The notes below the pieces were generated by a model that was given only the letters and a program-made list of their open reading frames with translations, made no database searches and was not told where the DNA came from. The translations under genes and the position numbers were made by a program. This document shows, piece by piece, positions 28,671 through 49,254 of a DNA stretch of 64,000 nucleotides (position 1 is its first letter; each line of letters opens with the position of its first letter). This DNA comes from a virus: IMG/VR virus record IMGVR_UViG_3300035157_000753, positions 1 through 64,000 of that record, one strand, 5' to 3'.

Positions 28671-28678
28671 TATTTATA
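28671..28678 (-). promoter_or_regulatory. Late promoter TATAAATA
   Basis: Exact match overlapping the gp7 stop, upstream of gp8. Confidence 0.8.
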
Positions 28679-31600: not shown

Positions 31601-34600
31601 CGTTAGTAGAAGGAATAGAATCTAATACCTGAACCTTAAAGGTTGTATTGTCAGCATCCCAAATAGTTAACCATCTACCACTAGCAGGATCAGTTGCTCT
31701 AGGATAAGCATGTGTGCCTCCACCTTGAGTGCAAGTGAATACAATAGCACTATCATCAAATTTAACTTGATCACCGTTCACAAAGGCACCTGCACCCCCT
31801 CCATGAGTAATAGTCATAATACCTGTAGCAGGATCATAATCTGCATCTGTTGGGGTATATGAAATAGTATCAGTTCTAGGATAAGACTGGTTGCTAACAC
31901 CACCATTATCACAACTCATCACAATACCACCATCTGCCAACTTGATAGTATCTCCTTTTCTTTGAACACAATTATCTGAAGCAGAAACAAATGTGTGTGC
32001 TTGACCTGTTGCTCCAGTTGCAACATAGAAATTCAATAATATTGTATCATTTGTTACATCAATTACTTGTAACCATGATCTATAGGCAGGATCTGTTACT
32101 CTTGGATAACTATGATTTCCAGCACCAGCAGTACATGTGAATGTTAATGATTCTTTGGCAATCTGAACAAAGTCACCTTTATTGATAGTATGACCTTTGA
32201 TTGTTAATGTCGCTATACCTGTAGCAGGATCATAAGCAATATCAGTTGGAGTGAATGTATCATATCCACGGAACTTATGCCCACCAACAGTTAGATCAAG
32301 ATCTCCATTAGCAAGGTTAAGAGCAGCACCTGTTGGTTGATAATTTACAGTAGGTGATGGTCCAACATTAACTGTGATTGTTGTTCCAGTTGTAGCAGTA
32401 ATATATTGATTAGTCTTAGCAGCTGGATCTGTTACTCTAGGATAGTTGTGTAAAGTAGCACCTAAGCTAGTTAGATTTCCACTAGCAAGAGTACCATCAT
32501 TCTCCATATGACATCTAAACATCAAGGAGTTAACATCAATATTAATACTATTTCCAACCTCAAGACTATGAGATCCAATAGTTAATTGAAGATCTCCAGT
32601 TGTTGCAGTATAGGTAGCTGCCGTTGGAGTAAATGCAACTTCAGGTGATGCACCAACATCAACGGTAAATGTGTCTGAAGTAACGGACTCGACTCCAAGT
32701 ACTGCCTTAGAAGACCTATCACCTGCAGCTGGATATGAATGTCTGGAGAAGTCATCATCCATTGAGCATGTGAATGTCAATGCGTCATCATCAATGCTAA
32801 CGAAGCTAGTTGCATAAAGAATACCATCTGCCAATCCAGAAACGAATGCATGAGTAGTGGTATTAGTACAAGGAGTATCATCCAAACATTGAATATCAAA
32901 TGTATCTGTAGTCACTGCTCTAATTGTAATCCACTTACCGCTAATTGGATCTGTTGAACGTGGGTAAGCACTCTGACCGCCACCACCGTGAGTACAACTC
33001 ATGGTTATAGCACCATCCTTAAGTTTTACTTTATCTCCTGCTTCAAATCCATGTCCAGTAACAGTTATTGTAACAATACCAGTTGATGTATTAAATGCTG
33101 CATCAGTTGCAGTATGAGATGTAGCAGCAGTCAATCCATGGTTATCAACACTCATTGACAAAGCACCTGTAGATGCATTGAATGTAGCTGAGGTTGGTGT
33201 CATTGCCTTCTCTACTGCCTGTCCAATATTAACTTTGAAATTATTTGTAGATACTTCAAATACATTGAGCCAGTTACCTGCAGCAGGATCAGTAGATCTT
33301 GGATATGTGTGATTTGTAGCATATCCATCACGAGAGCACTTGAAGGTTAAACCATCAGTAGCAAACTGAACAAAGTCACCATTAGAAAGACCATGAGCAG
33401 TAGCCCAGACTTCCATTATGCCAGTAGTAGCATCATAATCACAGTATGATGGTTGATACTGATAAGTTGCTAGTGAATCAAATGTATGTGTAGTAGTATT
33501 TGTAGCAGCAGTACCATTTAATGCATTAACAGTAAACGTAGTAGATGTTATAGCATCAACTGGGACATTCTTACCAGAAATAGGATCTGAAGAACGAGGA
33601 TATGAATGAACACCTCCACCATGAGTACAAGTGAAGTTCAATGAGTTATTTGAGAACTTAACTGTAGATGTGGCAATGCTTAGACCAGAAGCAACAGCAG
33701 ATACAAATGAATGAGCATCAGTATTTGTAGAAGGAATTGTATCCAGTACAGTTACATCAAATGTATTAGTTGTTATGTTTGATACTTCTAACCACCTATC
33801 ACTAGCATAGTCAGTACTACGTGGATAATCCTTTTGTGCTGCAGCACCAGAAGCACCACCAAACGCACAACTTAATTTAAGTGAACCATCAGCAAACTTA
33901 ACCTGATCACCTGCCTTTAATCCATGTGCCACTACAGTAACTGTCATAATACCTGTAGTTGGGTTATAGTCAGCATCAGTTACAGTTGTGGTTGTAGGAG
34001 CAGTTAAAGTATGTTCTCCAACAGTTAATTGTAGTACACCTGTACTAGGAGTGTATGCTGCAGCACTAGGTACATATGAATTGGTTAATGGTTTTCCAAT
34101 TGGACTGATTCCTAAGATATCATTTTCTGTATATCCGTTACCTGGGTTGTTTAATACTACATTCTTAACACCACCATCAACAACAACTATATCACCAGTA
34201 GCACCAACACCTGTTCCAATCTTATTGAATAATGGAATGTTAGTATATGTACCATCTGCATATCCTGTACCAGCAGTCAGTCCATCAGGAGTGTCTCTAA
34301 CGGGACTTAGATTAGTATTGACCTGTACAGTAATAGTAGTAGCAGTTTCTGCTGTAATTGCCAAGGTAGCACCAAATGCTTCATCCGATGGTCTTGGATA
34401 AGCATGTGTACTAGCATGATTATCAGCAGCACAAGTGAACTTAAGAGAACTATCAGCAATCTGAATAGTATCACTAGTTGTATAGCTATGAGATCCAATA
34501 GTTAATTCTAAGAGACCAGTAGCAGGAGTATATGCAGCATCTGTTACATTCTTCTGGGTATTACTATCACTAACCACAGTTACAGCATTGGTTACTGTAC

Positions 34601-37600
34601 CACCAACATAGGTATGAGCAGCACTACCAGACATACCAGTATCTAAAGTCTTTATCTCATCTCCAATCTGATCTAATTGGAAGCTAGAAGTATATGATGC
34701 ACGATCATAGTACATTACCAAAGCACTAGAACCTAATTGAGGTGCAGTAGAGAATGTTATAACATCACTAGCAAAAGTATAATTATTTGGATTCTGAACA
34801 ATACCATCAATTATAACTAAGAACTGTGATTTAACAGATGTCTTGTTAATCTTGGTACTAACTGCTGTATTATCAACTCTTGTTGAGAACTGAGTATTAA
34901 CTCCATCAATTCCTACTGTGAATCTATTAATAGCAGCAGTAGATCCAACATTAACAGTAAATGTATCAGTAGTTTCTGCTATAATGTTCAATATCTTTCC
35001 ACCATGACCTATTGGATCTGTTGATCTTGGATATGTGTGGTTAGTTGCATTGTTATCCATTAAACAAGTTAATGTCAATGCATCATCAGCAATAGTGATT
35101 GTATTAGCAGTAGTTAATCCATGTCCAGCACTATGAATTACTAAATTACCATCTGCAGGAGTATATACAACATTTGTTGGGTTAAAGGAACTTCCATTAT
35201 TTGCTTCAATACCATCTGTCTTACAAGAAACAAATGTATGTGTACCTACACTGAGTGAGGATAGTACAACTGTACTACCTCCAAGAGAAGGTTTCAAAGA
35301 TATTGTATTAGCATCAATAACATCAACGTAATATACAGTTCCTGTTGTCAATCCACCAATATCACCTTTAAAGGTAACAGTTTGATTCTCAATCAATCCA
35401 TGATTAGTTAATGTAATTCTATTATTACTTAAATCAACTACACTAGAAGATGCTCCATCAAAGACGATATCTCTAGTTGTAATATCATCAACCTTATATG
35501 AGACACAAGTTAAGATCTTCTGAATATCTAACAACTGTCTACCGAATACTTGAACCTCTGTAGGAACAGCAGCTGTATAATCTGGTTTACCAAGAGCAAA
35601 GTTATTAATAGTTGCCAACTTACCAGTATTCTTAGCAGATGGTTTTGGTGTTACAAATGTAAGACCATTAAAGGTTGAATTAAGACTATTAGTACCAGGA
35701 ACCCACCAATCTGTTGAACTAGTGGTAAGTAAATCAAGAGTAGGTTTACCCCTATAAGATTTCTTAGATGCCTGTGATAGTATCTGTGTACCAACAACTT
35801 TTAACCCTGCAGGGTGAGCAGCAAATTTAAGTGGATTCTTCCAATCTTTAATATTAATAGGTGAAGATATCTCATATGAGAATTCTTGGAACCTATCACT
35901 ATCATATAATCTCTGTTCGTTAATATCTAAGAATCCAGTAGTACGTTCCCACTTAGAAGATGATATACTAATTGGAGAAACTTCAAATACAGCATCTGCT
36001 CTATCAAACGCATGAATCGAACCAAATGATGAAGATTCCTCACCAAATATAGGTTGACCAACTTTAAACTCACCTTCACTAATTTCTACACTAACAACAC
36101 GTCCAGCAGGATCCCAATTCTTAACATATCCAAATGCAGTATATGAAGCTGTAGATGCACCCTGATAAACTCTTTCTCCAACTAAGAATGTTGCAGGTCT
36201 CATATATGCAGTAATAGTATCACCAAGATCAGTAGTATCTAATGTAAAGGTTGTTAATCCATTAGCATCTCCAACTGGAGCAGAAGTGAATGTAATTGTT
36301 GTTGGACTGTTCGCAAGTGCATTTGCTTCAGATGTTGCTAATCTAACTTGATTATCTGCCAATCCATTTGAACCATTAGAAGCAACAACATAATATGTTG
36401 TATTAATTGCCAATGGAGCTGGGAAAGTACCAACTACTTCATTTAAGGTTACTGCAGTACCTGTTGGTATCTTTGTATTGTATGGGAAGTTTAAAGTACT
36501 ATTAGACATCAATGCAACCCAGTTATGAGTTACTCTTGCATTTACAATTGGAGCAGATAAGAATCCTCTACCTCCATTTCTAACCTCTACCGATTGTATA
36601 ACTTCATTCTCAACAATCGCTTCTAATTGATAAAGTGACCCACTTCCACCAGTAAGAACAATTGTTGGTTGTGATACAAAATTAGATCCACCATTAGTAA
36701 CATCAATATAATCAATAACCTGAGTTCTTGTTAATTGAAGATTATAGGTTGTATTTAATTCTGGTTTTAGAGTTCTATCATGACTATAGTTAAATGTAAT
36801 ATTATCTCCACCAATCTTTAATATCTTACCCAAATCGGAAGATTTAAGTAATAAAGAAGCACCCTTTCCTGTTTTCTGTGTAATATTAACTACAGGAGCA
36901 TTCTGATATAATGTTCCACCATCTTCAATATTAATAGCAGAAACACCTTCATTTACAATACTTGAATTGAACTTAGCGTTGATTCCACTACCACCACTAA
37001 CATCTACATTTGGTGCTGATAGATAACCAGATCCAGTATTGGTTACTGTAATAGCATCAATAGATGCATTTAACACACAATTGGTAATCGCTGGATCAAG
37101 ATGTGTAAGTTTATCAACTGTCACAGTAGCATCATGAGTAACATCAGTACCACCCATTGATGCACCAGAAATTGTAATAACGTCACCTAGTGCATATGTA
37201 CTACCACCATCAGTAACGGTAATACTTTCAATAGTTCCTGCACCATTAACAACTACTGTAAACTCAACACCAGTTCCCCCAGTAGGAGCAACACTCTTCT
37301 GAGCAACACCAGTATATGATCCAGTTGTATAATTGGTACTAGACTGTGTAGTAATTGCTACAGTGTTTACTAGTCCATATGTGGGATCATCAAGATCAAT
37401 AGTAGGAGCAGCTCTATAATTAGATCCTGCTGCAATAATATTAACAGATTCTAATTTACCAACATTTGGACCTGAGCTGGGAATAATGGCCTGGACGTTA
37501 GCATGAATTCCACCCACAGTTGTGACCTTACCTTCAGCATCAGAACTATAAACCTTACCTCTAGCATTGTTAGATGTATATGGAGTGTACATGATCCACC

Positions 37601-40600
37601 CTCTAGTTGCTGCACTAAAGTTCCCAGCTCCATCTTTTAGATTATTTCGCAGAGGTTGAATTCTCAATATGGAAGTTGTTGGATCCCAACTAATAACTTT
37701 ACCTCTAGCAGTTTGAGCACCTAGAACTGGTTCTGATATAACAATTTCATCTTTAGCAAACGAACCACTACCTAATACTTCAGTTAGAGTTAAATCTACA
37801 AAATCTGGTAAAGTTACATATGCTACTGGAGCAGATGCAGGATTATAACCAGATCCCATGTTAGCAATAGTAACACCAGATACTGAACCAGAAATAGTAG
37901 CAACTGCAGTTGCACCAGATCCAGATCTAGTAGATCCAGTTAATTTTGGAAGAGATGAGTAGTTTCTTCCCGAATCACCGATAGAAATTTTTCCAATACC
38001 GCCTGTTGGGTATATTGAAGTTGTAACATAAGTAATACCACTTGTATATCCACTTTCAGGTTCTTTTCCACAAATATAAGTGAAATTGAGATCAGTTACA
38101 TCTTTTACAATATTTGTGCCCGATAAAGGCTCATTCATAACTGTAAGGTAACTTCCAGCAATAGTTCCTTGAATATCGAAGTAATAGAAGATTCCAGGAA
38201 GATCTGTCATCAATATAGTGATAGAAGTCTGTTGACCCGTTTGTGCATTCTTTGTTTCCGCAGATATGTTCTTATAAGTGAAAATATCGGTATTTGCGGG
38301 ATCTAGAGTAAATGCAAGTGTTTTTCCAACATTACTTGCATCTGAAGTGTCAAATGTGTAAGAATGCCCGTCAATCAACTCTAACTTGGGTTCTTGGACA
38401 TAAACATCAGCAGAAGTGACTGTAGCGGCAGCTGTAGACCCATGATTGCGTTTTACAGTGAATCTACGAAGAGTTTCCGTTCTAATTACTTCATAATCAG
38501 TTTTATCGTATGCAGATGGAGAAACTCCTGAAATATTAACAGTATCGCCTATTGCAACTTGATGAGCAAGATTTGTATGACATACTGCCTCTCTTAGAGT
38601 CTCAGTTAATGTAATACTGAAACTAGACCCTCCACCATTACCTAAGTTCTGATCACTAGCAGAAATAGTATCTCCAACATTATATGCAGTACCAAAGTCT
38701 GTAATTGTAACTGTGGTGATTGCACCGCCAGAAACGACTATAGTTGCCTTTCCGTTTCTACCACTATTATTAGTAGTTAATGGAACGTCATTATAAGTTC
38801 CATTTGTATATCCAGATCCACCAGTAATACCTGACCATCCACCTTGGACTAAATTACCGTCTGTACGAGTTCTTACGTAAGTCCAAGTCAATGTACCATC
38901 AGATGCTGTCCCTGATAAATGAGTAGGAGCATTTCCTGCACCAGAATCAGATGTACCAGCTGCAGCAGCCTTATAAACTCTATTTGAAACATAAACAAGA
39001 TCATTTTTAGCATATGCAGTACTATTAGTCCAAGGACCAATTAACTTCATGCTTACTAGGTCAAAATACTCAAAATGGTACTTATTATTGATAATTTTAG
39101 TATTAAGAGATCTTGTAGCTGAATTATCAGAAATAGAAACAGTAAGTTGATCATCACCAACCAAATAATGCTTATCTGAAGTTGTTAAAGTCGCAGTAAC
39201 AACATCATCGTCATCTACAGCATAATTTAAGGAAGAAACAACTGCACCACTAACTGCAGAGACAGATGCACTAACACCTTCTCCTCCAGAGGTACTATTA
39301 TCAAATAATAGTCGATCATTAACCTTATAACCAGTACCACCACCTTCTATAAGGTATTCATTGATATTAGAAGAAGAATATTGGTTAGTAGAGGTAACTG
39401 TTAGTGATTCTGCTATTCCACCACGAATTACTGGATAATAACTGAAATATCCAATACCATCTTCAACATATTGAAGAATTTCTCCAGTTTCAAGTGTAAT
39501 AAGAGTTGTAGTGTCTTCTAGTGCTAAAACGAAGTCAACTTTGTTATCAAGTTGCTTTCTCTTAGTGGTTATGTTGTCAGTTCCGATATATGGTGCTTTA
39601 TACCTAATTGCGTCTTCTGTAAAGTTTTTCTGAAGACCATTTCCGTCCCAGTTGACTTCATCCGCTTCTGAGTAGAAATTTGGTCCTACAAAATATGGAA
39701 ATTTCGGATTTCCACTGATTCCATCAATTGTACAGAAATATGCATAAACTCCATCTGGAAATTCTGGAGTTACGCAGAATCTACCATTATATTGGTCTAA
39801 ACCGCCTAATCCCTCTACATATTCATAATCTTCGATAAAGGTTCCCATAGGGTCGCTTAGACCGCTTAGAAGAGCATCCCTAGTTGTCTTCAATCGGTAG
39901 CTTGTACCAGGTTGCTTATATGAATTGTATGGATTCTGATTTTCAGGATCTTCATACCCATAAGGTCCATATATGGGGTGTCCATCGTATGCCCAACCTA
40001 TAATCGGTGAATGTTTAGTTGGAGTTAGCTCTTTCCATGGTGGATTATTAGGATCCGTGTCAGGTTCAATATTATCAGCTAAGTAATACCTAAGATTCTT
40101 AGGATTATACAAATATCCATACTCTCCACCATATATTCCAATATTCTCACCTACCATCACTGCTCCACTAGCCTGATCAGTCACTTTCCTTGCATTGAAG
40201 TTTACTTGACCAACTTCTGTAGCAGTTGCTGATTCGTTATAGGTTAATTCTGTTAATTTGGTTGTAAATGAAGCACCAGTTCCAGGATATACAATACTAA
40301 TGCTTGTATTACCTATAGTGTATCCAATTCCTTTATTTGTTACGACAATACCAGTAACAATGTTCTGTGATAAGTCTACTTGAGCAAATGCAGTAGCACC
40401 AACTCCATCTCCAGTGATAACAACGTCTGGAGCACCAAAATACCCACTACCACCAAAAGTTACGATAGCACTCTCTATCTTTCCATTCAAGATTGATGGA
40501 TAAGCAACAGCACCACTACCAGAGATCAATTTAATAATCGGTTCGTATGTATACTGCGATCCAGCATTAGTAATAGTAATATCCTTAAGAGGTCCACGTA

Positions 40601-43064
40601 CAACAGCAGTTGCAGTTGCTCCTGCACCGTTACCACCAGTAATTGTAATAGTTGGTAATCCAGCAGCCTGTGTATATCCACTTCCAGATCCAGTAACTGT
40701 GATTCCAGTAACCTTACCATCAGTTATCTGTGCAACAGCAGTTGCCTGTGTATTATTAGATGCACCACCTCCACTAATAGAGACACTTGGTTCACTTGTA
40801 TATCCACCACCTCCATTCGTAACGTTAATAGCAATAACTCTACCATCTACCTCTGAAGTTGCAGCTGCAGCAAGACCTAAGTAGGTCCATTCAACAGTTC
40901 CTAGAGTTACATCACCAGATGTATGTGTAGGGTACAATGTATTACTACTTTGACCTACATTCTTAGATTGATATCTTTTTCCATTCCATTTAACAATTAT
41001 TCCACTAGCATAGGTAGTTGCAAGCTTATAATCTGGTTCAAACTCAACTGTAGGTGGGTTTTGAATATCATATCCATCTCCACCTGAATTTTTAATAACT
41101 GACTTCAATCCACCATATTTTTTAGTAGCACTTCCCTTATATGAGAACAAAGGAACACCATTAGTACCAATTCCAACCTGACCTATAGGAGTTGGAGTTT
41201 TTGTACTCTTAGTAGATGTTGTTAGTGGTATTCTTTTAAGATATCTCTGGTTTCCTGGATCTACATCACCTGCTGCAAAAGGTCCAATCTTATGTGATGG
41301 TATACCTGTACTAGCTATAATACAATCTGTTGATGACTTGTAGGTATTACTGGTATCTGCAATAAACTTAGAAATTGTAGCATTGTAAGAGTAGTCAGAT
41401 GATCCATATGCAAATTCTCTAGCAATAAAGAATTCCTTACCTGCTAATATCGGAGCAGCAGGAGTTGATGAAAGAATAAACTCAAAAACAAAATCATCAA
41501 CAATACCAATTACATCATGTTGGTTATTGTAGATATCTTCCTCAGCATTAAGGATTCTAACCTTATCATCTCTTCTTAATTGATGCTTCTCTTTTGTTGT
41601 AACAGTTACTCTAACAGAACCATTAGGATTGGGTGTTCCTAGGGTTGCTGTAACCCCTCTAAGTGCCCTTCTGACGTTATATAAGAAAGAACTCCATATT
41701 GGGTCAAGACTATCGAAACCAGGTGCTAGAGGGGTCGTAACCTTACTCTGTGGAAGGTAATACTTACCACCCTTTGCTATATTAACACCTCTGGTTCCAC
41801 CATAGACCTTTAATTGAATTTCAGACCCATCTACGTTGCTTTTACCGTAAATCTTGTATGCAGCAAAAACTTCTTGCCCTGCATCGTGTGCTACATTGAG
41901 TGTATTCTCTCTAGCACGATTACAACCTAAAAATTGGTTAACTGTCTTATCTTGATATGTAATAATTTCATCTTCAATCCTAAATCGACCATTTTTCTCT
42001 GGCCAACCTAATGTAGAATCAACAGTAATGATATTATCACTTAAATCACCAGTTAAGTCCGCAGCAAGAATTGATTTGTAAGGAGTTACAAAAGTTCCAA
42101 GTGAATTATTGGTATCTACATCAATTTCAAAGATTGAACCAGTTTGAGTGAATACTTCAACAACACCTTTAACGTATATACGTGCTGTATCAACATTTGG
42201 ATCAGTTGTATCTGCTTCTTGATATAAAACTTCCCCAACAAGCTCAGTTGGGTCTCCTGTTATAGCAACACAACGAATTACTTCCCTAGAAGTGTAATAT
42301 GCGTCAGATGGTTTGAAAATTCTATCTCTTGGATAGGAAACTTCCGATTCTACACCAAAAATTGTTCTTAAAACGAATTGGAACGATCTTGTAGACCCTT
42401 TAGAAGCATAAAAGTCCTTAATTCGCTTAATTACGGTACTTTCAGTGATTCCAGTGTAAAAATTCTTCGGATAAGTGGATAAAAGCAGTTCTTTGAACTG
42501 TCCCAACATGAAAAGTGGGAAAAGGTTGTTCAAATTAACAACTTTTGACCCAATAACGTGTTCTGCAGCAATTGTTGATGAAAAAACGAATTCTCCTGCA
42601 TCTCCAAGTGCTTTTACAGCATCAAAACCTCTTTCACAACTGTTAAAGAGGGTTGCACCCTTACTTTGGTAGTAAATTATCTCATCATCTATTAAAAGTA
42701 GTCCTTCATCGGGAAAATCACGAGTTGAAGTAACGTCAATAGTAGAAGAAGAGGTAGTTACCGTTGAAATTGTCGTTGTTTCAGTAACTAAGTTCCCATA
42801 ATTGTCAAGATTGTAATAATCAGCCCAATTATTGATTATATCTAAGCAATATCCCTTTAATTCTTGTGATTTATAGTATGCTCTAACGAATTCTATGAAT
42901 GTAGGAAAGCTCTGCTGTACAAAACTGGCAAATTGACCAGTAATGCTGTCAGATAACTGCGATCTAGATTCAGGACTTACTTCCGATGGAACTGGTGGTG
43001 CCGATACCGTTGTGGTCGGAGTGGTCCACGACCCTACTTTCCAGGATGAATTCGATTGAGCCAT
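28674..43064 (-). CDS. gp7: Baseplate wedge initiator gp7, 4796 aa, with large repeat insertions and a split YHYH-like domain
   Basis: IKRIKDFYASKGS..SFQFVLR; QEFSYEI.S....W...HPAG; HSPIIGWAYDGHPIYGPYGY..TPEFPDG.YAYF; lies between gp6 and gp8. Confidence 0.88.
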   Translation of the reverse strand: MAQSNSSWKVGSWTTPTTTVSAPPVPSEVSPESRSQLSDSITGQFASFVQQSFPTFIEFVRAYYKSQELKGYCLDIINNWADYYNLDNYGNLVTETTTISTVTTSSSTIDVTSTRDFPDEGLLLIDDEIIYYQSKGATLFNSCERGFDAVKALGDAGEFVFSSTIAAEHVIGSKVVNLNNLFPLFMLGQFKELLLSTYPKNFYTGITESTVIKRIKDFYASKGSTRSFQFVLRTIFGVESEVSYPRDRIFKPSDAYYTSREVIRCVAITGDPTELVGEVLYQEADTTDPNVDTARIYVKGVVEVFTQTGSIFEIDVDTNNSLGTFVTPYKSILAADLTGDLSDNIITVDSTLGWPEKNGRFRIEDEIITYQDKTVNQFLGCNRARENTLNVAHDAGQEVFAAYKIYGKSNVDGSEIQLKVYGGTRGVNIAKGGKYYLPQSKVTTPLAPGFDSLDPIWSSFLYNVRRALRGVTATLGTPNPNGSVRVTVTTKEKHQLRRDDKVRILNAEEDIYNNQHDVIGIVDDFVFEFILSSTPAAPILAGKEFFIAREFAYGSSDYSYNATISKFIADTSNTYKSSTDCIIASTGIPSHKIGPFAAGDVDPGNQRYLKRIPLTTSTKSTKTPTPIGQVGIGTNGVPLFSYKGSATKKYGGLKSVIKNSGGDGYDIQNPPTVEFEPDYKLATTYASGIIVKWNGKRYQSKNVGQSSNTLYPTHTSGDVTLGTVEWTYLGLAAAATSEVDGRVIAINVTNGGGGYTSEPSVSISGGGASNNTQATAVAQITDGKVTGITVTGSGSGYTQAAGLPTITITGGNGAGATATAVVRGPLKDITITNAGSQYTYEPIIKLISGSGAVAYPSILNGKIESAIVTFGGSGYFGAPDVVITGDGVGATAFAQVDLSQNIVTGIVVTNKGIGYTIGNTSISIVYPGTGASFTTKLTELTYNESATATEVGQVNFNARKVTDQASGAVMVGENIGIYGGEYGYLYNPKNLRYYLADNIEPDTDPNNPPWKELTPTKHSPIIGWAYDGHPIYGPYGYEDPENQNPYNSYKQPGTSYRLKTTRDALLSGLSDPMGTFIEDYEYVEGLGGLDQYNGRFCVTPEFPDGVYAYFCTIDGISGNPKFPYFVGPNFYSEADEVNWDGNGLQKNFTEDAIRYKAPYIGTDNITTKRKQLDNKVDFVLALEDTTTLITLETGEILQYVEDGIGYFSYYPVIRGGIAESLTVTSTNQYSSSNINEYLIEGGGTGYKVNDRLLFDNSTSGGEGVSASVSAVSGAVVSSLNYAVDDDDVVTATLTTSDKHYLVGDDQLTVSISDNSATRSLNTKIINNKYHFEYFDLVSMKLIGPWTNSTAYAKNDLVYVSNRVYKAAAAGTSDSGAGNAPTHLSGTASDGTLTWTYVRTRTDGNLVQGGWSGITGGSGYTNGTYNDVPLTTNNSGRNGKATIVVSGGAITTVTITDFGTAYNVGDTISASDQNLGNGGGSSFSITLTETLREAVCHTNLAHQVAIGDTVNISGVSPSAYDKTDYEVIRTETLRRFTVKRNHGSTAAATVTSADVYVQEPKLELIDGHSYTFDTSDASNVGKTLAFTLDPANTDIFTYKNISAETKNAQTGQQTSITILMTDLPGIFYYFDIQGTIAGSYLTVMNEPLSGTNIVKDVTDLNFTYICGKEPESGYTSGITYVTTSIYPTGGIGKISIGDSGRNYSSLPKLTGSTRSGSGATAVATISGSVSGVTIANMGSGYNPASAPVAYVTLPDFVDLTLTEVLGSGSFAKDEIVISEPVLGAQTARGKVISWDPTTSILRIQPLRNNLKDGAGNFSAATRGWIMYTPYTSNNARGKVYSSDAEGKVTTVGGIHANVQAIIPSSGPNVGKLESVNIIAAGSNYRAAPTIDLDDPTYGLVNTVAITTQSSTNYTTGSYTGVAQKSVAPTGGTGVEFTVVVNGAGTIESITVTDGGSTYALGDVITISGASMGGTDVTHDATVTVDKLTHLDPAITNCVLNASIDAITVTNTGSGYLSAPNVDVSGGSGINAKFNSSIVNEGVSAINIEDGGTLYQNAPVVNITQKTGKGASLLLKSSDLGKILKIGGDNITFNYSHDRTLKPELNTTYNLQLTRTQVIDYIDVTNGGSNFVSQPTIVLTGGSGSLYQLEAIVENEVIQSVEVRNGGRGFLSAPIVNARVTHNWVALMSNSTLNFPYNTKIPTGTAVTLNEVVGTFPAPLAINTTYYVVASNGSNGLADNQVRLATSEANALANSPTTITFTSAPVGDANGLTTFTLDTTDLGDTITAYMRPATFLVGERVYQGASTASYTAFGYVKNWDPAGRVVSVEISEGEFKVGQPIFGEESSSFGSIHAFDRADAVFEVSPISISSSKWERTTGFLDINEQRLYDSDRFQEFSYEISSPINIKDWKNPLKFAAHPAGLKVVGTQILSQASKKSYRGKPTLDLLTTSSTDWWVPGTNSLNSTFNGLTFVTPKPSAKNTGKLATINNFALGKPDYTAAVPTEVQVFGRQLLDIQKILTCVSYKVDDITTRDIVFDGASSSVVDLSNNRITLTNHGLIENQTVTFKGDIGGLTTGTVYYVDVIDANTISLKPSLGGSTVVLSSLSVGTHTFVSCKTDGIEANNGSSFNPTNVVYTPADGNLVIHSAGHGLTTANTITIADDALTLTCLMDNNATNHTYPRSTDPIGHGGKILNIIAETTDTFTVNVGSTAAINRFTVGIDGVNTQFSTRVDNTAVSTKINKTSVKSQFLVIIDGIVQNPNNYTFASDVITFSTAPQLGSSALVMYYDRASYTSSFQLDQIGDEIKTLDTGMSGSAAHTYVGGTVTNAVTVVSDSNTQKNVTDAAYTPATGLLELTIGSHSYTTSDTIQIADSSLKFTCAADNHASTHAYPRPSDEAFGATLAITAETATTITVQVNTNLSPVRDTPDGLTAGTGYADGTYTNIPLFNKIGTGVGATGDIVVVDGGVKNVVLNNPGNGYTENDILGISPIGKPLTNSYVPSAAAYTPSTGVLQLTVGEHTLTAPTTTTVTDADYNPTTGIMTVTVVAHGLKAGDQVKFADGSLKLSCAFGGASGAAAQKDYPRSTDYASDRWLEVSNITTNTFDVTVLDTIPSTNTDAHSFVSAVASGLSIATSTVKFSNNSLNFTCTHGGGVHSYPRSSDPISGKNVPVDAITSTTFTVNALNGTAATNTTTHTFDSLATYQYQPSYCDYDATTGIMEVWATAHGLSNGDFVQFATDGLTFKCSRDGYATNHTYPRSTDPAAGNWLNVFEVSTNNFKVNIGQAVEKAMTPTSATFNASTGALSMSVDNHGLTAATSHTATDAAFNTSTGIVTITVTGHGFEAGDKVKLKDGAITMSCTHGGGGQSAYPRSTDPISGKWITIRAVTTDTFDIQCLDDTPCTNTTTHAFVSGLADGILYATSFVSIDDDALTFTCSMDDDFSRHSYPAAGDRSSKAVLGVESVTSDTFTVDVGASPEVAFTPTAATYTATTGDLQLTIGSHSLEVGNSINIDVNSLMFRCHMENDGTLASGNLTSLGATLHNYPRVTDPAAKTNQYITATTGTTITVNVGPSPTVNYQPTGAALNLANGDLDLTVGGHKFRGYDTFTPTDIAYDPATGIATLTIKGHTINKGDFVQIAKESLTFTCTAGAGNHSYPRVTDPAYRSWLQVIDVTNDTILLNFYVATGATGQAHTFVSASDNCVQRKGDTIKLADGGIVMSCDNGGVSNQSYPRTDTISYTPTDADYDPATGIMTITHGGGAGAFVNGDQVKFDDSAIVFTCTQGGGTHAYPRATDPASGRWLTIWDADNTTFKVQVLDSIPSTNVTVHTFDSAVSNGMKKKKDWAYDRPIPIKSVGYTSHAVSNATYAPGTGVLTATVAGHGFSNGDYVKVNQGALKFTCNKDSNATVKSYPTLEDPNYDEWMLVSNVTTDTFDINVGVAGPNGQHAHTFVPEGKLTPTVAAYDPLTGVFTITINNHGFVAGDEIKIDDDTFKFTCNEDFHTSFHNYPRSTDPISGQWVKIYNVTTNTFDIQVLNSVPSTNTTAHTFISAVSNSITRSAVKKQTGVITINTNNRDSAITHQYAHSFVSAGATAVIAGGNYTHTFIQATANAIRSGGNHTHTFVNATPGSVKTGFAHQFVSANANSVTRSLVQSGGYEYDRLADAGRLIRENLDFIATTAYGRMMATNSTFVVPSFVKCIRDTKLIAQAIANNIEFGGNDSTYDAAKYYVGTVHLQGEEDQTVLVFNHARDICREVMRNISVTTNSYTEGAQYRDLTITNDSGNATYDTNDCTDVASAITTLTAIVTQAVGTTSGGAGNLTGITRTSSSNPEFQVEVGTVAFDGTDKIFSAKVAGSNYALPASDNFLIFLNSILQIKGSTEAYTYTGSTISFTEAPTSGMDFYGFYFGKLQLLDTIAPFFDNARQTFVMTLNSEPFSLQSDNTSVEPANNVMIFINGVFQEPGVAYQLNGSIIEFFEAPRAGSTCSLYIYVGSAEDIFISNTFNSLDANDRIMVKSEGEDRLLATVSSATSIDTYEYTGLRPTVANFECTINNGKVNTVSILDGGSNYEVPPILYFQGGSGTGASAETVIQSGSGRVTSVVNLNGGAGYLTPPTVFAVHPLHVERKSRQRLISNTLALANTYLSTAISAVDTTLTCKNIYFDVSQNIGFPDEGEVLIPYWDASKGSWTCERILYGSKNTTANTLTVATGGRGYGGTTASAISIQTGTYSSSGTVCTVTTSAAHNLITGMSIYLDHTSGDGFDGAYKVTVTAVDTFTVEYPFSRTASGNVSLLPEVRLRSL

Positions 43065-43072
43065 GCGTTTTA

Positions 43073-44956
43073 TTAATTATAGCTGGACTCTGGTACAACT
43101 CCCGTACCAGATAGGTTTGAACCGCTACTGATAGTGTCTTCTACAACACTAACTGTCGTATTATCTATACCTAATGTCAAATAGGTTTCACGCAAAGAAA
43201 CAAGGTCATTAGATTCTGGAACTGCTGAAAGTTGAAGAATATTACCTGATGTTATTGTATTTGAAATTATTATGTCATTAATGACAATTTCACCCATAGT
43301 GTAATCAACAGTACCTACGTCAGCAGTACTGTATTCAAATGCACCAGTATCTTTAATGTAATAAAGTCTCAATTTACCAGCTCCATCATCATTGATGAAG
43401 TAAGTATTAACATTATCACCCTGAATTCTAAATCCTGAAGAGGAAACCGTGGGTTCTGTCGAGGTTCCTTGGTTAATTCTGTTACCATAACAGATTTTAT
43501 AGTTCACACGAGCGTTTAAATCAACTGTTACGTTCTTTCTCATCTTGAGACGAGTGATATTCGATGTAACTGAGGTATCTGCACCGTCAATTATACTCTG
43601 AAGTTTAGAGTATTTGAACTTTCCACCAAATTTATTGAATTCAGACCCTGTGTTAAGCGCAGTTAATGTTGCAATAACTGCAGTTTTAACTTCTTCTTGG
43701 GATTTACGTGTAATATTAGGGTTAAAATACACAAAACTGTTCATATCGATGTATAAAATCGATGGATCAATGATAGAAGGCTGAATCGCAGCAACAGAAT
43801 ACTCTCTGAGCTTCTTCAAAACGACATTTTTCTCTGCAAGAGATAATTTATCCGCATTTTTTGGTTTAATTGCCAAAAATACCTTCCCATATTCAGGAGG
43901 ATCCGCTTCTTCACCACCATAACATGCAATTGAAGCGACATTTGGATAAATTTGAGGAACAATTGCCTCATAATCCTGCGTTGAGACTGCTCTACCGAAT
44001 GCAGAGTAGAATTTAGGCGCAGAAAACTTGATTCCTTCCTTAGTTTCCGCTGGAGCACCACCTTCAGGACGTTTATCCAACGTAATAGTGATTCCAGAGG
44101 TCAAAGAATTCGCTTCATCGTCTAAAAATGTTCCAATATTAGTGAAAGTGAGCAATCCATTAGCTCCAGTTCCACTAGAAGTGGTATAAGTGACGCTAAT
44201 TACATCACCATTGAGCAAATCTTTACCAATTGTACCATCACCAAACATAATTTCAGGTCTTCCATACTCAGATTCTTCTAAAAAGAAGACTTTTGATGAA
44301 GAATTAATCTTAGTGATGTCTGTTGCTTGCAAATAACGCTCTGTGACAGTACCAGAAGTGACCTGAACCTTCATTACAGAGGTGTCTGCATCAGTATTTG
44401 TAAGAATAAAGCGTTGTCTTTCGGAAGTATTACGTACAAATGTGTCTGTTAAGTAAACACCTTCATAAACTATGAGACCTGCAAAGGTTGCAATACCAGT
44501 TGTACTGTCTACAGATACCGTAACATCAGATGGAATAGAGAAAACAAAGTTATTATTGTCTAGTCCAGTGAAATTTAGTACCAATCCTTGTGAAATTGTA
44601 ACAGTTTTTGGATATCCTTTTGTAATTACACCCTGTGAATTGGTTGTAACATTAGTTTGAACCTGAATTGTAACAGTTGCTTGGGAAGAACGAGATGATT
44701 TTGGTGTATAACCAAGCATTCTTGCCAATTTTACGACATTTTCACGTAAAACTGCGGTCTCTAGGAACCCTTCATTAACTGCAAGGTTGGCATTTACACT
44801 AGTGTAATAGGTATTATATGCTAAAGTATCAATCAGTACAGTCAATGATGACCCTTCAAAGTCATAATCACTAAACTCTGATTGTGCTGTTAGATAATTT
44901 TTAATCTGTGCCTTGATTTCGTTGAACTCAAGTGCATTTACCTGCTTAAATGCCAT
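43073..44956 (-). CDS. gp6: Baseplate wedge subunit gp6
   Basis: F.DYDFEGS.L..LID.LAYNTYY, LARMLGY.PKS, RAVS.QDY, PPEYGKVF. Confidence 0.95.
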   Translation of the reverse strand: MAFKQVNALEFNEIKAQIKNYLTAQSEFSDYDFEGSSLTVLIDTLAYNTYYTSVNANLAVNEGFLETAVLRENVVKLARMLGYTPKSSRSSQATVTIQVQTNVTTNSQGVITKGYPKTVTISQGLVLNFTGLDNNNFVFSIPSDVTVSVDSTTGIATFAGLIVYEGVYLTDTFVRNTSERQRFILTNTDADTSVMKVQVTSGTVTERYLQATDITKINSSSKVFFLEESEYGRPEIMFGDGTIGKDLLNGDVISVTYTTSSGTGANGLLTFTNIGTFLDDEANSLTSGITITLDKRPEGGAPAETKEGIKFSAPKFYSAFGRAVSTQDYEAIVPQIYPNVASIACYGGEEADPPEYGKVFLAIKPKNADKLSLAEKNVVLKKLREYSVAAIQPSIIDPSILYIDMNSFVYFNPNITRKSQEEVKTAVIATLTALNTGSEFNKFGGKFKYSKLQSIIDGADTSVTSNITRLKMRKNVTVDLNARVNYKICYGNRINQGTSTEPTVSSSGFRIQGDNVNTYFINDDGAGKLRLYYIKDTGAFEYSTADVGTVDYTMGEIVINDIIISNTITSGNILQLSAVPESNDLVSLRETYLTLGIDNTTVSVVEDTISSGSNLSGTGVVPESSYN

Positions 44957-45345
44957 TATGGTTTCAATGCAACTTCTACTGAATCTTGTATAGGAGGAAT
45001 TCCAAGTATAATGTATTCAATTGAAACGTCTAATTGGTTACGATTCTCTTCCCACTTAGTGTAAACGTCAAGGACTGCTACCCTAGGTTCGTGAATATTG
45101 ATCGCATCTGATAGACGCTCCGTTATTTCATTCTCAAGATCAGGACTAGCATTCTCAAATAACAGCCCTATAATATTGCCACCAAAGAAAGGATCGAATG
45201 GTTTCTCATAAAAATTATATAATACTATATTTTTCACGCTAGCCTTGATGGCTGATTCATTAGTCAGTGCCAAAACATCGTTTGTCACTGCATTCTTTTC
45301 AAAAGTCAAGCTGAAGTCACGGAAAGACTTCGATGTAATTGCCAT
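44956..45345 (-). CDS. gp25: Baseplate wedge subunit gp25
   Basis: AIKASVKNIVL...EKPFDP.FG..I..LLFE...HEPRV; adjacent to gp6. Confidence 0.92.
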   Translation of the reverse strand: MAITSKSFRDFSLTFEKNAVTNDVLALTNESAIKASVKNIVLYNFYEKPFDPFFGGNIIGLLFENASPDLENEITERLSDAINIHEPRVAVLDVYTKWEENRNQLDVSIEYIILGIPPIQDSVEVALKP

Positions 45346-45369: not shown

Positions 45370-45377
45370 TATTTATA
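45370..45377 (-). promoter_or_regulatory. Late promoter TATAAATA
   Basis: Exact match upstream of gp25. Confidence 0.8.
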
Positions 45378-45385
45378 CCTGTTAT

Positions 45386-45679
45386 TCAGACTTGATAGAA
45401 AGTGTACTTCAAGAAGAGCTCTTGACCCTTTTTAATTGGTTTAGTGGTCATCATATGATATATCTTACCCCATCCCTCATCTTTATATCCTTTAACGCAG
45501 TTGGGATCATTACTATGATTCACAAAACCACCTAAAGGAGTTCTCATAATCTCTTCATCCACCACAACATGTGATATACCAAGATAGATGTTGTCTGGTA
45601 TATCCTCTTTAGCAAAAATGCCCTGTCCTGCGACAGGGCTATCTTTGATGTGTAGGCACTTGGGTAATGCTTGATACAT
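45386..45679 (-). CDS. Minimal SET-domain protein-lysine methyltransferase, 97 aa
   Basis: All three SET signatures present: S.VAGQGIFA..DI, FVNHSNDPN, IKKGQELFLKY. Confidence 0.88.
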   Translation of the reverse strand: MYQALPKCLHIKDSPVAGQGIFAKEDIPDNIYLGISHVVVDEEIMRTPLGGFVNHSNDPNCVKGYKDEGWGKIYHMMTTKPIKKGQELFLKYTFYQV

Positions 45680-45828
45680 TATCTGCCCTGTCCCCTATAT
45701 CTCTTCTTTGCACTATTACGACTGGTAGCAGAGAACTTACTATGTTGACCTCTACCTTGTCTTGTTTTCTTGGGGATTGCTTCCATTTTTGAGGAAGTAC
45801 CAAATCCACCTGCCTTAGTCTTTGCCAT
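45679..45828 (-). CDS. Very basic 49-aa K/R/G-rich peptide (not in ORF track)
   Basis: MAKTKAGGFGTSSKMEAIPKKTRQGRGQHSKFSATSRNSAKKRYRGQGR; starts 2 nt after the PAAR stop, and its TAA overlaps the SET ATG. Confidence 0.8.
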   Translation of the reverse strand: MAKTKAGGFGTSSKMEAIPKKTRQGRGQHSKFSATSRNSAKKRYRGQGR

Positions 45829-45830
45829 AA

Positions 45831-46124
45831 TTAACCTGCGAATACGTTAGATGATCCTTCAGCGACTGATGTACAGCCACTTATTGCATCTCCTATTCTA
45901 CCACATCCTTTGCCATTTACAAATACGGTTGTACTTCCTGTAGCAATTGGTGCAGAATGAGATGGACAAGGAACACCTGGTTTAAGATGTCCAGTGTTCA
46001 CATCACCCTGACGAGAAATAGGAATACAATTAGCAAAGACATTACCAGACCCTTCTGCTCTGACCATACCAGAACAATGTGATACGTCTGCGTCTCCTAC
46101 TCTAGTTACGGCTGGCATTTTCAC
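45831..46124 (-). CDS. PAAR-repeat spike tip protein (gp5.4-like)
   Basis: PAVTRVGD..H..AEGS.NVF, H...C..H..PIATGS.TVFVNGK..GRIGD. Confidence 0.92.
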   Translation of the reverse strand: MKMPAVTRVGDADVSHCSGMVRAEGSGNVFANCIPISRQGDVNTGHLKPGVPCPSHSAPIATGSTTVFVNGKGCGRIGDAISGCTSVAEGSSNVFAG

Positions 46125-46368
46125 TACCTCCTATATTACAGTCTAGATCATTATGACAGTTCTCTGATCCACCAATAGCAAATGGATTATGATATGCTGT
46201 AGCAATCCTGTACATCTTCTCATGCATTGTTATCTCTTCTTCAGGGGGATCAGGTGGTTCATATTCACTAGGTGCAGTATCTTCCCAATCAAATGCTGCA
46301 GCTATCTCTTCTTCAGGTCTAGGTGGATCATCAAACCAGTCATCATGTACTATACGTGGATAAGTCAT
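46102..46368 (-). CDS. Acidic hypothetical protein, 88 aa
   Basis: Coupled ORF within the late operon. Confidence 0.65.
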   Translation of the reverse strand: MTYPRIVHDDWFDDPPRPEEEIAAAFDWEDTAPSEYEPPDPPEEEITMHEKMYRIATAYHNPFAIGGSENCHNDLDCNIGGSENASRN

Positions 46369-46865
46369 TAGTTGTAATAAGTGTCAATAAGGGATCGCAT
46401 ACCTTCCCATGAGTTATTTATTTTCATGGTAAGGGTAAAGGATTCAGGTGTCTGAGCCGCGTTATTCAATTCATAAGATACAACAATAGTAAACGTCTTA
46501 GTCGTATATGCAGTCATATCTTGGTTAATGGTATAAACAACCTTACCTGCAGGTAGGTTATCTGCACCTGTAACAGTAGTAGAGCTCATCGTATTTGTTG
46601 ATTCCCCTGAGCAGGGAGCTGTATCAAGATATGTGAATGTATCTGAAAAGGGGTCAGCAAAAGACCCTGTAATCGACACAGAGGTTGTACCTGGTGTGAT
46701 TACAAGGTTAGGTTCTGTTCCATCTACTGAAGCAGTTACATTCGTTATCGTCTCATTAACGGCATCATCTGTAGATGCTGTTACTGTCTGATTGATTGTA
46801 AACGTTGGTCTAGTCCTATCTGGTATAGACCATGGTTCAGCAAATGGTGAAACAGAGATTGTCAT
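46368..46865 (-). CDS. Thr-rich Ig-like hypothetical protein, 165 aa
   Basis: Beta-rich ORF upstream of PAAR. Confidence 0.7.
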   Translation of the reverse strand: MTISVSPFAEPWSIPDRTRPTFTINQTVTASTDDAVNETITNVTASVDGTEPNLVITPGTTSVSITGSFADPFSDTFTYLDTAPCSGESTNTMSSTTVTGADNLPAGKVVYTINQDMTAYTTKTFTIVVSYELNNAAQTPESFTLTMKINNSWEGMRSLIDTYYN

Positions 46866-47068
46866 TTCGTCTCTCTAGTCATCAATTCTTGTAAGTAGTC
46901 TGCATACTTGGACATAGCATTATGCTGTGCCTCAGTATGTGGAGGTTCTGGAGAACTAGGGGCAAACTTAATAAGATGATCAAACGAAGCAGGTAAATCC
47001 CTTGCTCTGTTATGCCTTATCGTTTCTCCATTAACCTTAATAATGAATTCTCCTTCCAATTCGTCCAT
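46862..47068 (-). CDS. Hypothetical protein, 68 aa
   Basis: FDHLIKF.P..P.PPHTE.QH motif; late promoter upstream. Confidence 0.75.
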   Translation of the reverse strand: MDELEGEFIIKVNGETIRHNRARDLPASFDHLIKFAPSSPEPPHTEAQHNAMSKYADYLQELMTRETK

Positions 47069-47081
47069 AGTTTTTTGATGC

Positions 47082-47088
47082 TATTTAG
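47082..47088 (-). promoter_or_regulatory. Late promoter CTAAATA
   Basis: 14 nt upstream of the ATG at 47068; first late promoter of the structural block. Confidence 0.6.
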
Positions 47089-48939: not shown

Positions 48940-49254
48940 TCACGTGAATACGAGATCAGCGAGCGACGTGGTAGAATATAGAACACAGTCTTGGCGAAAC
49001 TGCTTTTTGTAACGTTGCCCGACCTCATGAAGATTTTTGATCATGCGATCTGCACCCGCTGTTCTTTCATCCACGGTGATTGAAATAGTCATGCATTCTT
49101 CCAAATCGCCTTTGTAAATTCCAACCCCTTCCGTGATCGTTGCGAAATCCAAAAGAGAGCAAACCTCATCTTTCAAAAACTGATTCCACATTTGACGGGT
49201 CACGGTGCCTGAGTTTGGGATGTTGCGACCTAGGGTGATGCTGTGGGTTTGCAT
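48940..49254 (-). CDS. DUF3574/SAM-lyase-like early protein, 104 aa
   Basis: LGRNIP...V....W.QFL..EV...TI.EG.G.YKG..EE...YKKQFRQDCVL; start placed downstream of the TATAAT at 49282-49287. Confidence 0.65.
   Translation of the reverse strand: MQTHSITLGRNIPNSGTVTRQMWNQFLKDEVCSLLDFATITEGVGIYKGDLEECMTISITVDERTAGADRMIKNLHEVGQRYKKQFRQDCVLYSTTSLADLVFT

Follow-up and report, generated by a model that had tools for sequence, protein, structure and literature searches.

A minimal SET-domain protein of marine cyanophages carried as cargo in a hypervariable slot between a core peptide gene and gp25

The gene of a 97-residue, stand-alone SET-domain protein lies among the baseplate genes of a marine virus. 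The DNA analysed, called the window, comprises positions 1–64,000 of IMGVR_UViG_3300035157_000753, an 87.2-kb viral record of IMG/VR that is rated about 48% complete. In the direction of transcription on the minus strand, three small open reading frames (ORFs) are followed by the genes of a PAAR protein, a highly basic 49-residue peptide, the SET protein, gp25, gp6, and a 4796-residue structural protein. The stop codon of the peptide gene and the start codon of the SET gene share the sequence TAATG (junction ...AGA TAATG TAT...), and 40 nucleotides separate the SET gene from gp25. The overlap and its position between PAAR and gp25 had been pointed out in an earlier reading of the sequence, here called the original prediction, and the junction reads as described there. 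The nearest isolates are the Prochlorococcus phages P-HM1, P-HM2, and MED4-213, with about 70% nucleotide identity across the flanks. Their PAAR and gp25 flanks match those of the window; however, no match to the SET gene was found in the three phages. In P-HM1 the order PAAR–peptide–gp25 can be read directly, and the approximately 180 nucleotides in front of gp25 do not contain a SET gene.

The SET ORF matches the Pfam family PF00856 with a score of 39.4 bits (E = 8.7e-10), compared with a cut-off of 22.4 bits, and a Pfam search of the whole record recovered it as well, with 30.7 bits. It also matches phrog_28741 (E = 5.7e-53). The best sequence match among solved structures is vSET from the virus PBCV-1 (1n3j, E = 0.0025), followed by MLL, EZH2, and SETD2. 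All three SET motifs align with those of vSET and MLL. Their conservation was assessed in an alignment of 32 family members with identities down to 45%. The GxG motif that binds S-adenosylmethionine (SAM) is represented by SPVAGQGIFA, aligned to SPLGGYGVFA of vSET, with G20 invariant and G18 retained in at least 90% of the homologues. The NH(S/C)xxPN motif, which forms the pseudoknot and cofactor pocket, is present as FVNHSNDPNC, in which N54, H55, S56, P59, N60, and C61 are invariant. The C-terminal ELxxxY motif, QELFLKY, aligns to EEITISY of vSET and has invariant E87 and Y92, the latter of which we take to be the catalytic tyrosine. A model calculated by AlphaFold2 from the family alignment has a mean predicted local distance difference test (pLDDT) of 92.6 and a predicted template-modelling score (pTM) of 0.81, with low confidence for the last three residues. 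A Foldseek search with the model returned 233 matches at E ≤ 0.001, of which the top-listed are all SET enzymes: 4rz0, vSET 3kma (query template-modelling score, TMq, 0.74; 24% identity), MLL1, SET7/9, and LegAS4 5czy. The predicted structure thus contains the SET β-fold within 97 residues. The stand-alone SET domain with three motifs and the likeness to vSET, both proposed in the original prediction, are borne out by these comparisons.

The invariance of the cofactor-binding and catalytic motifs down to 45% identity would be hard to explain without catalysis, and the motifs indicate that the 97-residue protein is probably an active minimal SAM-dependent lysine methyltransferase. Alternatively, the SET fold could have lost protein methyltransferase activity and serve as a binding module or act on a non-protein substrate. 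The protein is shorter than the 119-residue chain of vSET and ends without a post-SET region, and confidence in the model is low for the three final residues. However, the invariant NHS..PNC and E..Y motifs, together with the conserved GxG, make this alternative highly unlikely, and vSET itself is a minimal SET protein that is nevertheless active, according to the review PMC10117894. Relatives of similar length (53–170 residues) form 735 clusters at 90% identity in metagenomes, and some of the metagenomic copies are already named 'SET domain-containing protein' in the automatic annotation of JGI.

The basic peptide encoded upstream of SET matches phrog_516 (E = 5.9e-20) and was found by tblastn in 447 phage records, all of cyanophages or marine viruses. 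Among 78 distinct blocks of 30 codons, most of the variation is carried by third codon positions (entropy 14.4, 10.5, and 42.7 for the three positions), and 42,088 synonymous codon differences compare with 16,622 nonsynonymous ones. The peptide gene is a real gene and belongs to the core of cyanomyoviruses. The original prediction had called it unannotated, which holds for some genomes and not for others: the gene is missing or called in a wrong frame in P-RSM6 and P-HM1, and it is annotated as hypothetical in S-SSM5, Syn9 (gp96), and S-RSM4. In P-RSM6 there is no gene call at the peptide (L002, 3861–3998), in P-HM1 a gene call in a different frame, PHM1_084, covers it (L004, 2978–3266), and in Syn30 and ACG-2014h the annotation under the peptide match is 'none'. 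The peptide has no match in Pfam at E ≤ 0.1, its matches in the ESM Atlas are unnamed clusters only, and a literature search on the peptide found no paper. Its conserved core is approximately PKKTRQG..H(T/S)K..A(T/S)SRN.A(K/R)K(R/K)YRGQG(R/K). By contrast, its N-terminus is variable (MAKTKAGG, MALYNN, MAIRKK, MAKATAG, and others). Therefore, the AKTK start, which the original prediction compared to histone H3, is limited to one lineage.

The stretch between the peptide gene and gp25 is a hypervariable cargo slot, with variable content between conserved core flanks. The peptide served as the anchor for 80 IMG/VR loci, the best of at least 410 relatives; 75 of them have gp25 downstream, with a slot of 39–2490 nucleotides that is empty in 18 loci and occupied in 57. 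SET is present in six of the 75 slots and is each time the ORF nearest to gp25. In 34 of the 57 occupied slots the cargo begins with an ORF that overlaps the stop codon of the peptide gene, and many families are represented among these ORFs. Cargo recognized by Pfam includes heme oxygenase, AdoMet decarboxylase, 2-oxoglutarate and Fe(II)-dependent (2OG-Fe(II)) oxygenases, and GIY-YIG endonuclease, in addition to several unknown families, and a total of 62 ORF families occur across 127 loci. The position next to gp25 is also taken by other cargo, such as speD-like genes and genes of small acidic proteins. The same variability is seen in isolates: the slot is empty in S-SSM5, contains gp97–gp98 in Syn9 and two hypothetical genes in S-RSM4, and in S-CAM1 holds a 654-bp gene, labelled 'ferredoxin', that starts at the peptide stop. 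Two metagenome contigs, X3 from a DNA run and X18 from an RNA library, match the peptide gene and then diverge exactly at position 45677 into the same unrelated sequence, which indicates that in natural relatives another cargo gene occupies this junction. The original prediction had allowed that similar peptides occur here in other cyanophages and that SET may be a later insertion, and both the slot and the record counts agree with this. Since the peptide stop is a landing site for many unrelated genes, a start–stop overlap at this place is not evidence of a functional pair. A divergent SET subfamily with 51–52% identity is encoded last before gp25 in L118 (3647–4641) and L124 (4728–5003); in L118 the slot also holds a heme oxygenase gene, the start of which is at the peptide stop.

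The distribution of SET differs from that of the peptide. The SET gene was found by tblastn in six phage records, which are those of P-SSM7 and P-RSM6 (a GenBank and a RefSeq copy of each), the single-virus contig AG-345-P14, and the Pelagibacter phage Kolga. The SET gene of P-RSM6 (66% identity) is arranged as in the window, between the peptide gene, unannotated there, and gp25. In P-SSM7 the SET gene (79% identity) follows nrdA–nrdB and the gene of a small acidic protein, with talC a few genes further on, and is 113 kb from the phage's own peptide gene, which directly precedes gp25. Kolga encodes a SET protein (47% identity) and does not have the peptide; the neighbours of its SET gene are an AAA protein and hypothetical genes, and no baseplate genes are annotated nearby.

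Among IMG/VR loci anchored on SET (the best 80 of 91 relatives), gp25 lies downstream in 54. The spacing of 40–71 nucleotides is found in all of these baseplate-locus copies, including those of distant lineages. Upstream DNA is available for 52 of them. The peptide and SET genes are separated by a gap of 30–46 nucleotides in eight, and by at least one other ORF (189–1082 nucleotides) in 19, in which SET retains its place beside gp25. The remaining 26 of the 80 loci are elsewhere: three are P-SSM7-like, after nrdB, nine and five are in two other accessory islands, of which one locus each was read, and nine belong to distant relatives with 44–50% identity. None of these 26 loci has a peptide match in the fetched DNA, with upstream flanks of 206–3000 nucleotides.

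The constant position close to gp25 could indicate that the substrate of SET is a structural protein of the phage from the baseplate, tail, or capsid, which is synthesized together with SET and the assembly or stability of which is tuned by methylation. SET is the last gene of the close-packed PAAR–peptide run, just before gp25, gp6, and the gene of the giant structural protein, and the spacing to gp25 is kept in all 54 baseplate-locus copies. However, SET is also found among genes of nucleotide and carbon metabolism (nrdA/B...talC) in P-SSM7-like phages, as well as in the two other islands and in the Kolga context. Most cyanomyoviruses do not carry SET and yet share the same structural genes, and the gp25-proximal place is not reserved for SET. 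A structural target is therefore considered rather unlikely.

The SET gene has been exchanged among lineages, mostly into the same slot, as indicated by the decoupling of its identity from that of gp6. Across the loci, the identity of SET to that of the window does not follow the identity of gp6 (rho −0.16, p 0.24). Where gp6 identity falls below 50% (39 loci), SET is at 61–86% throughout; this range is found in phages with gp6 at only 31–42%, whereas close relatives with gp6 at about 90% carry SET alleles of 76–78%. On the SET tree, the baseplate label requires seven changes, at least three of which are forced by well-supported branches, and the SET of P-SSM7 nests within a baseplate clade.

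In the nrdB context (L001, P-SSM7, 3750–4380), the small acidic protein that precedes SET belongs to phrog_1336, which is also matched by the commonest gp25-proximal family of the slot. The heptamer CTAAATA, which we take to be the cyanophage form of the late promoter, is located within about 30 nucleotides past the SET stop in this context, and directly after the stop in L030 and L032. This hints that a block of the phrog_1336 gene, SET, and CTAAATA moved together out of the baseplate slot.

We favour, with somewhat more confidence than doubt, the reading that SET is a functional minimal lysine methyltransferase and horizontally exchanged accessory cargo, the substrate of which is not marked by its neighbourhood. 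The original prediction had proposed a closer relationship, in which SET and the basic peptide are an enzyme and its substrate. In such a model, lysine methylation of the co-translated peptide would precede its action as a component that condenses DNA, resides inside the virion, or associates with the spike. Several observations favour such a pair and weigh against the cargo reading. The peptide is encoded upstream of SET in 52 of 52 baseplate-locus copies with upstream DNA, which is a strong linkage, and its stop codon overlaps the SET start in 25 of them. P-RSM6 has the same order, and both SET-bearing cyanomyovirus genomes that were checked, P-SSM7 and P-RSM6, also carry the peptide, so that the co-occurrence is unbroken within cyanomyoviruses. 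The peptide is very basic, disordered, and rich in lysine, with invariant K20, K31, and K42, and is the kind of substrate that SET enzymes take. K42 in the sequence A-(K/R)-K presumably resembles the ARK(S) context of H3K9 and H3K27. The SET proteins of only 51–52% identity occupy the same slot as that of the window; the slot is the preferred home of the SET family, and this could reflect function and not only recombination. The two sets of 80 loci are samples of the collection rather than the whole of it, and the host substrate considered below is proposed by analogy only. In addition, the closest solved relative by sequence, vSET, is a histone-tail methyltransferase, according to PMC10117894.

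By contrast, an enzyme and a co-encoded substrate would be expected to remain linked wherever the enzyme occurs, to vary together, and to be coupled in a manner specific to the pair. SET is without a peptide match in the fetched DNA in 26 of the 80 loci, is far from the peptide in P-SSM7, and occurs without it in Kolga; at least three other contexts have no adjoining peptide. The two genes also differ in frequency, with 447 phage records for the peptide compared with six for SET, and SET occupies six of 75 peptide-anchored loci. The core of the peptide is identical in loci with and without SET, its N-terminus varies independently of SET, and no peptide residue or N-terminus correlated with the presence of SET was found when the two kinds of loci were compared. 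The overlap with the peptide stop is shared by unrelated cargo, and where extra genes are inserted it is the proximity to gp25 that SET maintains. SET homologues at unrelated loci without linkage to the peptide, which the original prediction had named as the genomic observation that would speak against its proposal, are thus present. A functional pair is considered unlikely, and the adjacency from which it was proposed does not distinguish SET from other cargo of the slot.

A natural fusion of the peptide with SET was also sought, and none was found. Only five SET forms longer than 170 residues were found, none of which is a peptide fusion. Gene calls of 125–147 residues are extensions of the SET frame across the peptide gene, which is in another frame. 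P0122 and P0124 look like chimeric short contigs, and the extensions of P0123 and P0125 are unrelated. Comparison by hhalign gave no homology between the peptide and the N-terminal extension of P0126 (probability 3.6%). P0126 is a 171-residue distant SET relative (44% identity) with 36 member sequences in 89 contigs, and its 48-residue extension, rich in K, R, and E, could be either a genuine basic tail or the product of an ORF that was called too long. A prediction of the complex of SET, SAM, and the peptide scored 0.00, with controls not run, and does not count as evidence on binding in either direction.

Between 47068 and 45386, neighbouring genes overlap or abut. SET is probably the last cistron of a late operon that includes PAAR and the peptide, as judged from gene spacing and promoter-like motifs (Table 1); the late transcript named in the original prediction is thus a probable one. 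A candidate late promoter precedes the first ORF of the run. The sequence TATAAATA is the consensus of T4 late promoters, and in 123 of 129 related loci, whether or not SET is present, a motif of TAAATA type is found at most 60 nucleotides in front of gp25. The four matches of TATAAATA in the window compare with 6.5 expected by chance; the count is not enriched and only the position is suggestive. Small parts of the region are present in three metatranscriptome runs. The X18 contigs cover 45475–45672, as a related SET allele with eight differences in 198, and 45699–45879, from the peptide into PAAR; contigs of RNA libraries may contain DNA, and they do not demonstrate transcription or operon structure. 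A GC-rich hairpin within the SET gene coincides with the codons for SPVAGQG in the SAM-binding motif. Many homologues retain it, whereas synonymous changes disrupt it in others, and no compensatory changes were seen among the homologues. The hairpin resembles a terminator but is treated as a by-product of the P-V..G-Q codons.

Table 1 Features of the SET locus in the window
Feature	Positions	Strand	Basis
SET-domain protein, 97 residues, stand-alone; predicted SAM-dependent protein lysine methyltransferase	45386-45679	-	Pfam, phrog_28741, motifs, AlphaFold2, Foldseek
Highly basic peptide, 49 residues, MAKTKAGG...KKRYRGQGR; core cyanomyovirus gene	45679-45828	-	phrog_516; 'T4-LIKE GC 394' in record notes
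PAAR-motif spike-tip protein, upstream of the peptide	45831-46124	-	PF05488, 36.2 bits; phrog_281
gp25 baseplate wedge protein; right-hand edge of the cargo slot	44956-45345	-	PF04965; phrog_261
gp6	43073-44956	-	Pfam and PHROGs
Three overlapping ORFs (68, 165, and 88 residues) in one close-packed run with PAAR, peptide, and SET	46102-47068	-	phrog_23903, phrog_17144
First ORF of the close-packed run that ends with SET	46862-47068	-	ORF list
CTAAATA, 13 nucleotides upstream of the first ORF (46862-47068) of the run; candidate late promoter	47082-47088	-	Read from sequence; putative
TATAAATA, T4-late-promoter-like, between the SET stop and the gp25 start	45370-45377	-	Motif match; putative function
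Perfect GC-rich hairpin of 8 bp with ATTTTTGC after it, within the SET gene at the codons for SPVAGQG	45620-45639	-	Sequence

Three further ORFs of the minus strand were noted. The 165-residue ORF 5′ of PAAR (46368–46865) matches phrog_23903, named 'toxin' ('putative RTX toxin' in P-HM1), and does not have a Pfam match; the label looks like an inherited annotation. The 4796-residue ORF after gp6 (28674–43064) encodes the virion structural protein in the position of gp7, and TATAAATA is located at its 3′ end (28671–28678). The identity of the product of 48940–49254 as a SAM lyase was not confirmed, with phrog_16022, of unknown function, as the only match in PHROGs; if true, it would have a bearing on the supply of SAM for the SET protein.

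In the cargo reading, SET would be an accessory (moron-type) gene traded horizontally among marine cyanomyoviruses. The left edge of the slot would be the stop codon of the core peptide gene and its right edge the late-promoter-like motif of gp25, with SET at the gp25-proximal end. The enzyme would probably be made late, as the last cistron of the PAAR–peptide operon, through stop–start coupling. Translational coupling to the peptide would be open to any gene that lands in the slot, and because it is available to whichever gene is there, the adjacency of the peptide to SET can be regarded as positional. The SET protein would bind SAM and methylate lysine on a protein. The SET family also occurs away from the baseplate locus, and one phage that carries it does not have the peptide; a target common to all these settings is therefore favoured, and the substrate is probably not encoded next door. 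Our best guess, drawn by analogy from vSET and the SET proteins of bacteria and archaea, is a host protein rich in lysine, for example one associated with the nucleoid. A late-made structural protein would rank second among candidate substrates, with a rather low probability, and the peptide third, with a lower one.

A more far-reaching form of the pair proposal, which we regard as improbable, is that the peptide is a histone-tail-like protein of the phage, either nucleic-acid-binding or located in the spike or virion interior, and is methylated on an invariant lysine, with K42 as the best candidate, in the minority of phages that carry SET. The methylation would be an optional, traded, epigenetic-style mark, and the peptide or its baseplate neighbours may, more generally, be tailored by enzymes that accumulate in the slot, with SET and 2OG-Fe(II) oxygenases as examples.

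SET lysine methyltransferases are well studied in eukaryotes, one algal virus, and a few bacterial pathogens. The 97-residue family is widespread in marine cyanophages and occurs also in a pelagiphage. The substrate of the SET protein would tell whether phages of the dominant phototrophs of the ocean use lysine methylation for host takeover or virion modification, and the protein would provide structural studies with a SET scaffold of very small size. The locus also calls for caution in the interpretation of gene neighbourhoods of T4-like phages, where the stop codon of a conserved small gene can be the landing and expression site of unrelated accessory genes.

With the cyanophage protein, the SET family gains a new member of unusually small size, borne as island cargo by phages of marine cyanobacteria. 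No description of phage SET genes, or of SET among cyanophage cargo, was found in the literature searched, the coverage of which does not extend to subscription journals. The closest known system is vSET (A612L of PBCV-1), a dimeric methyltransferase of lysine 27 of histone H3. Both are stand-alone viral minimal SET proteins, and their GxG, NHSxxPN, and E..Y motifs align. However, the cyanophage protein has 97 residues, whereas the vSET chain has 119, the identity is approximately 24%, and the bacterial host does not have histones. Furthermore, the cyanophage family is located in accessory islands of cyanomyoviruses. Prokaryotic SET proteins, which include Go1-SET of Methanosarcina acting on MC1-alpha and effectors of Chlamydia, Legionella, Burkholderia, and Bacillus, modify small basic DNA-binding proteins or host histones, as described in PMC10117894. 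The cyanophage protein is likewise a non-eukaryotic SET-domain protein, and LegAS4 is among its fold matches; however, the prokaryotic proteins are cellular or secreted and mostly larger or multi-domain, whereas it is phage-borne. The slot resembles the hypervariable islands of cyanomyoviruses, in particular the gp46–gp25 hot spot (Sullivan et al. 2010), in its conserved flanks, variable cargo, and a phylogeny of the cargo that is decoupled from that of the flanks. In contrast to the description of that hot spot, the left boundary is resolved here to the stop codon of a gene encoding a peptide of 45–50 residues, and SET consistently takes the gp25-proximal position.

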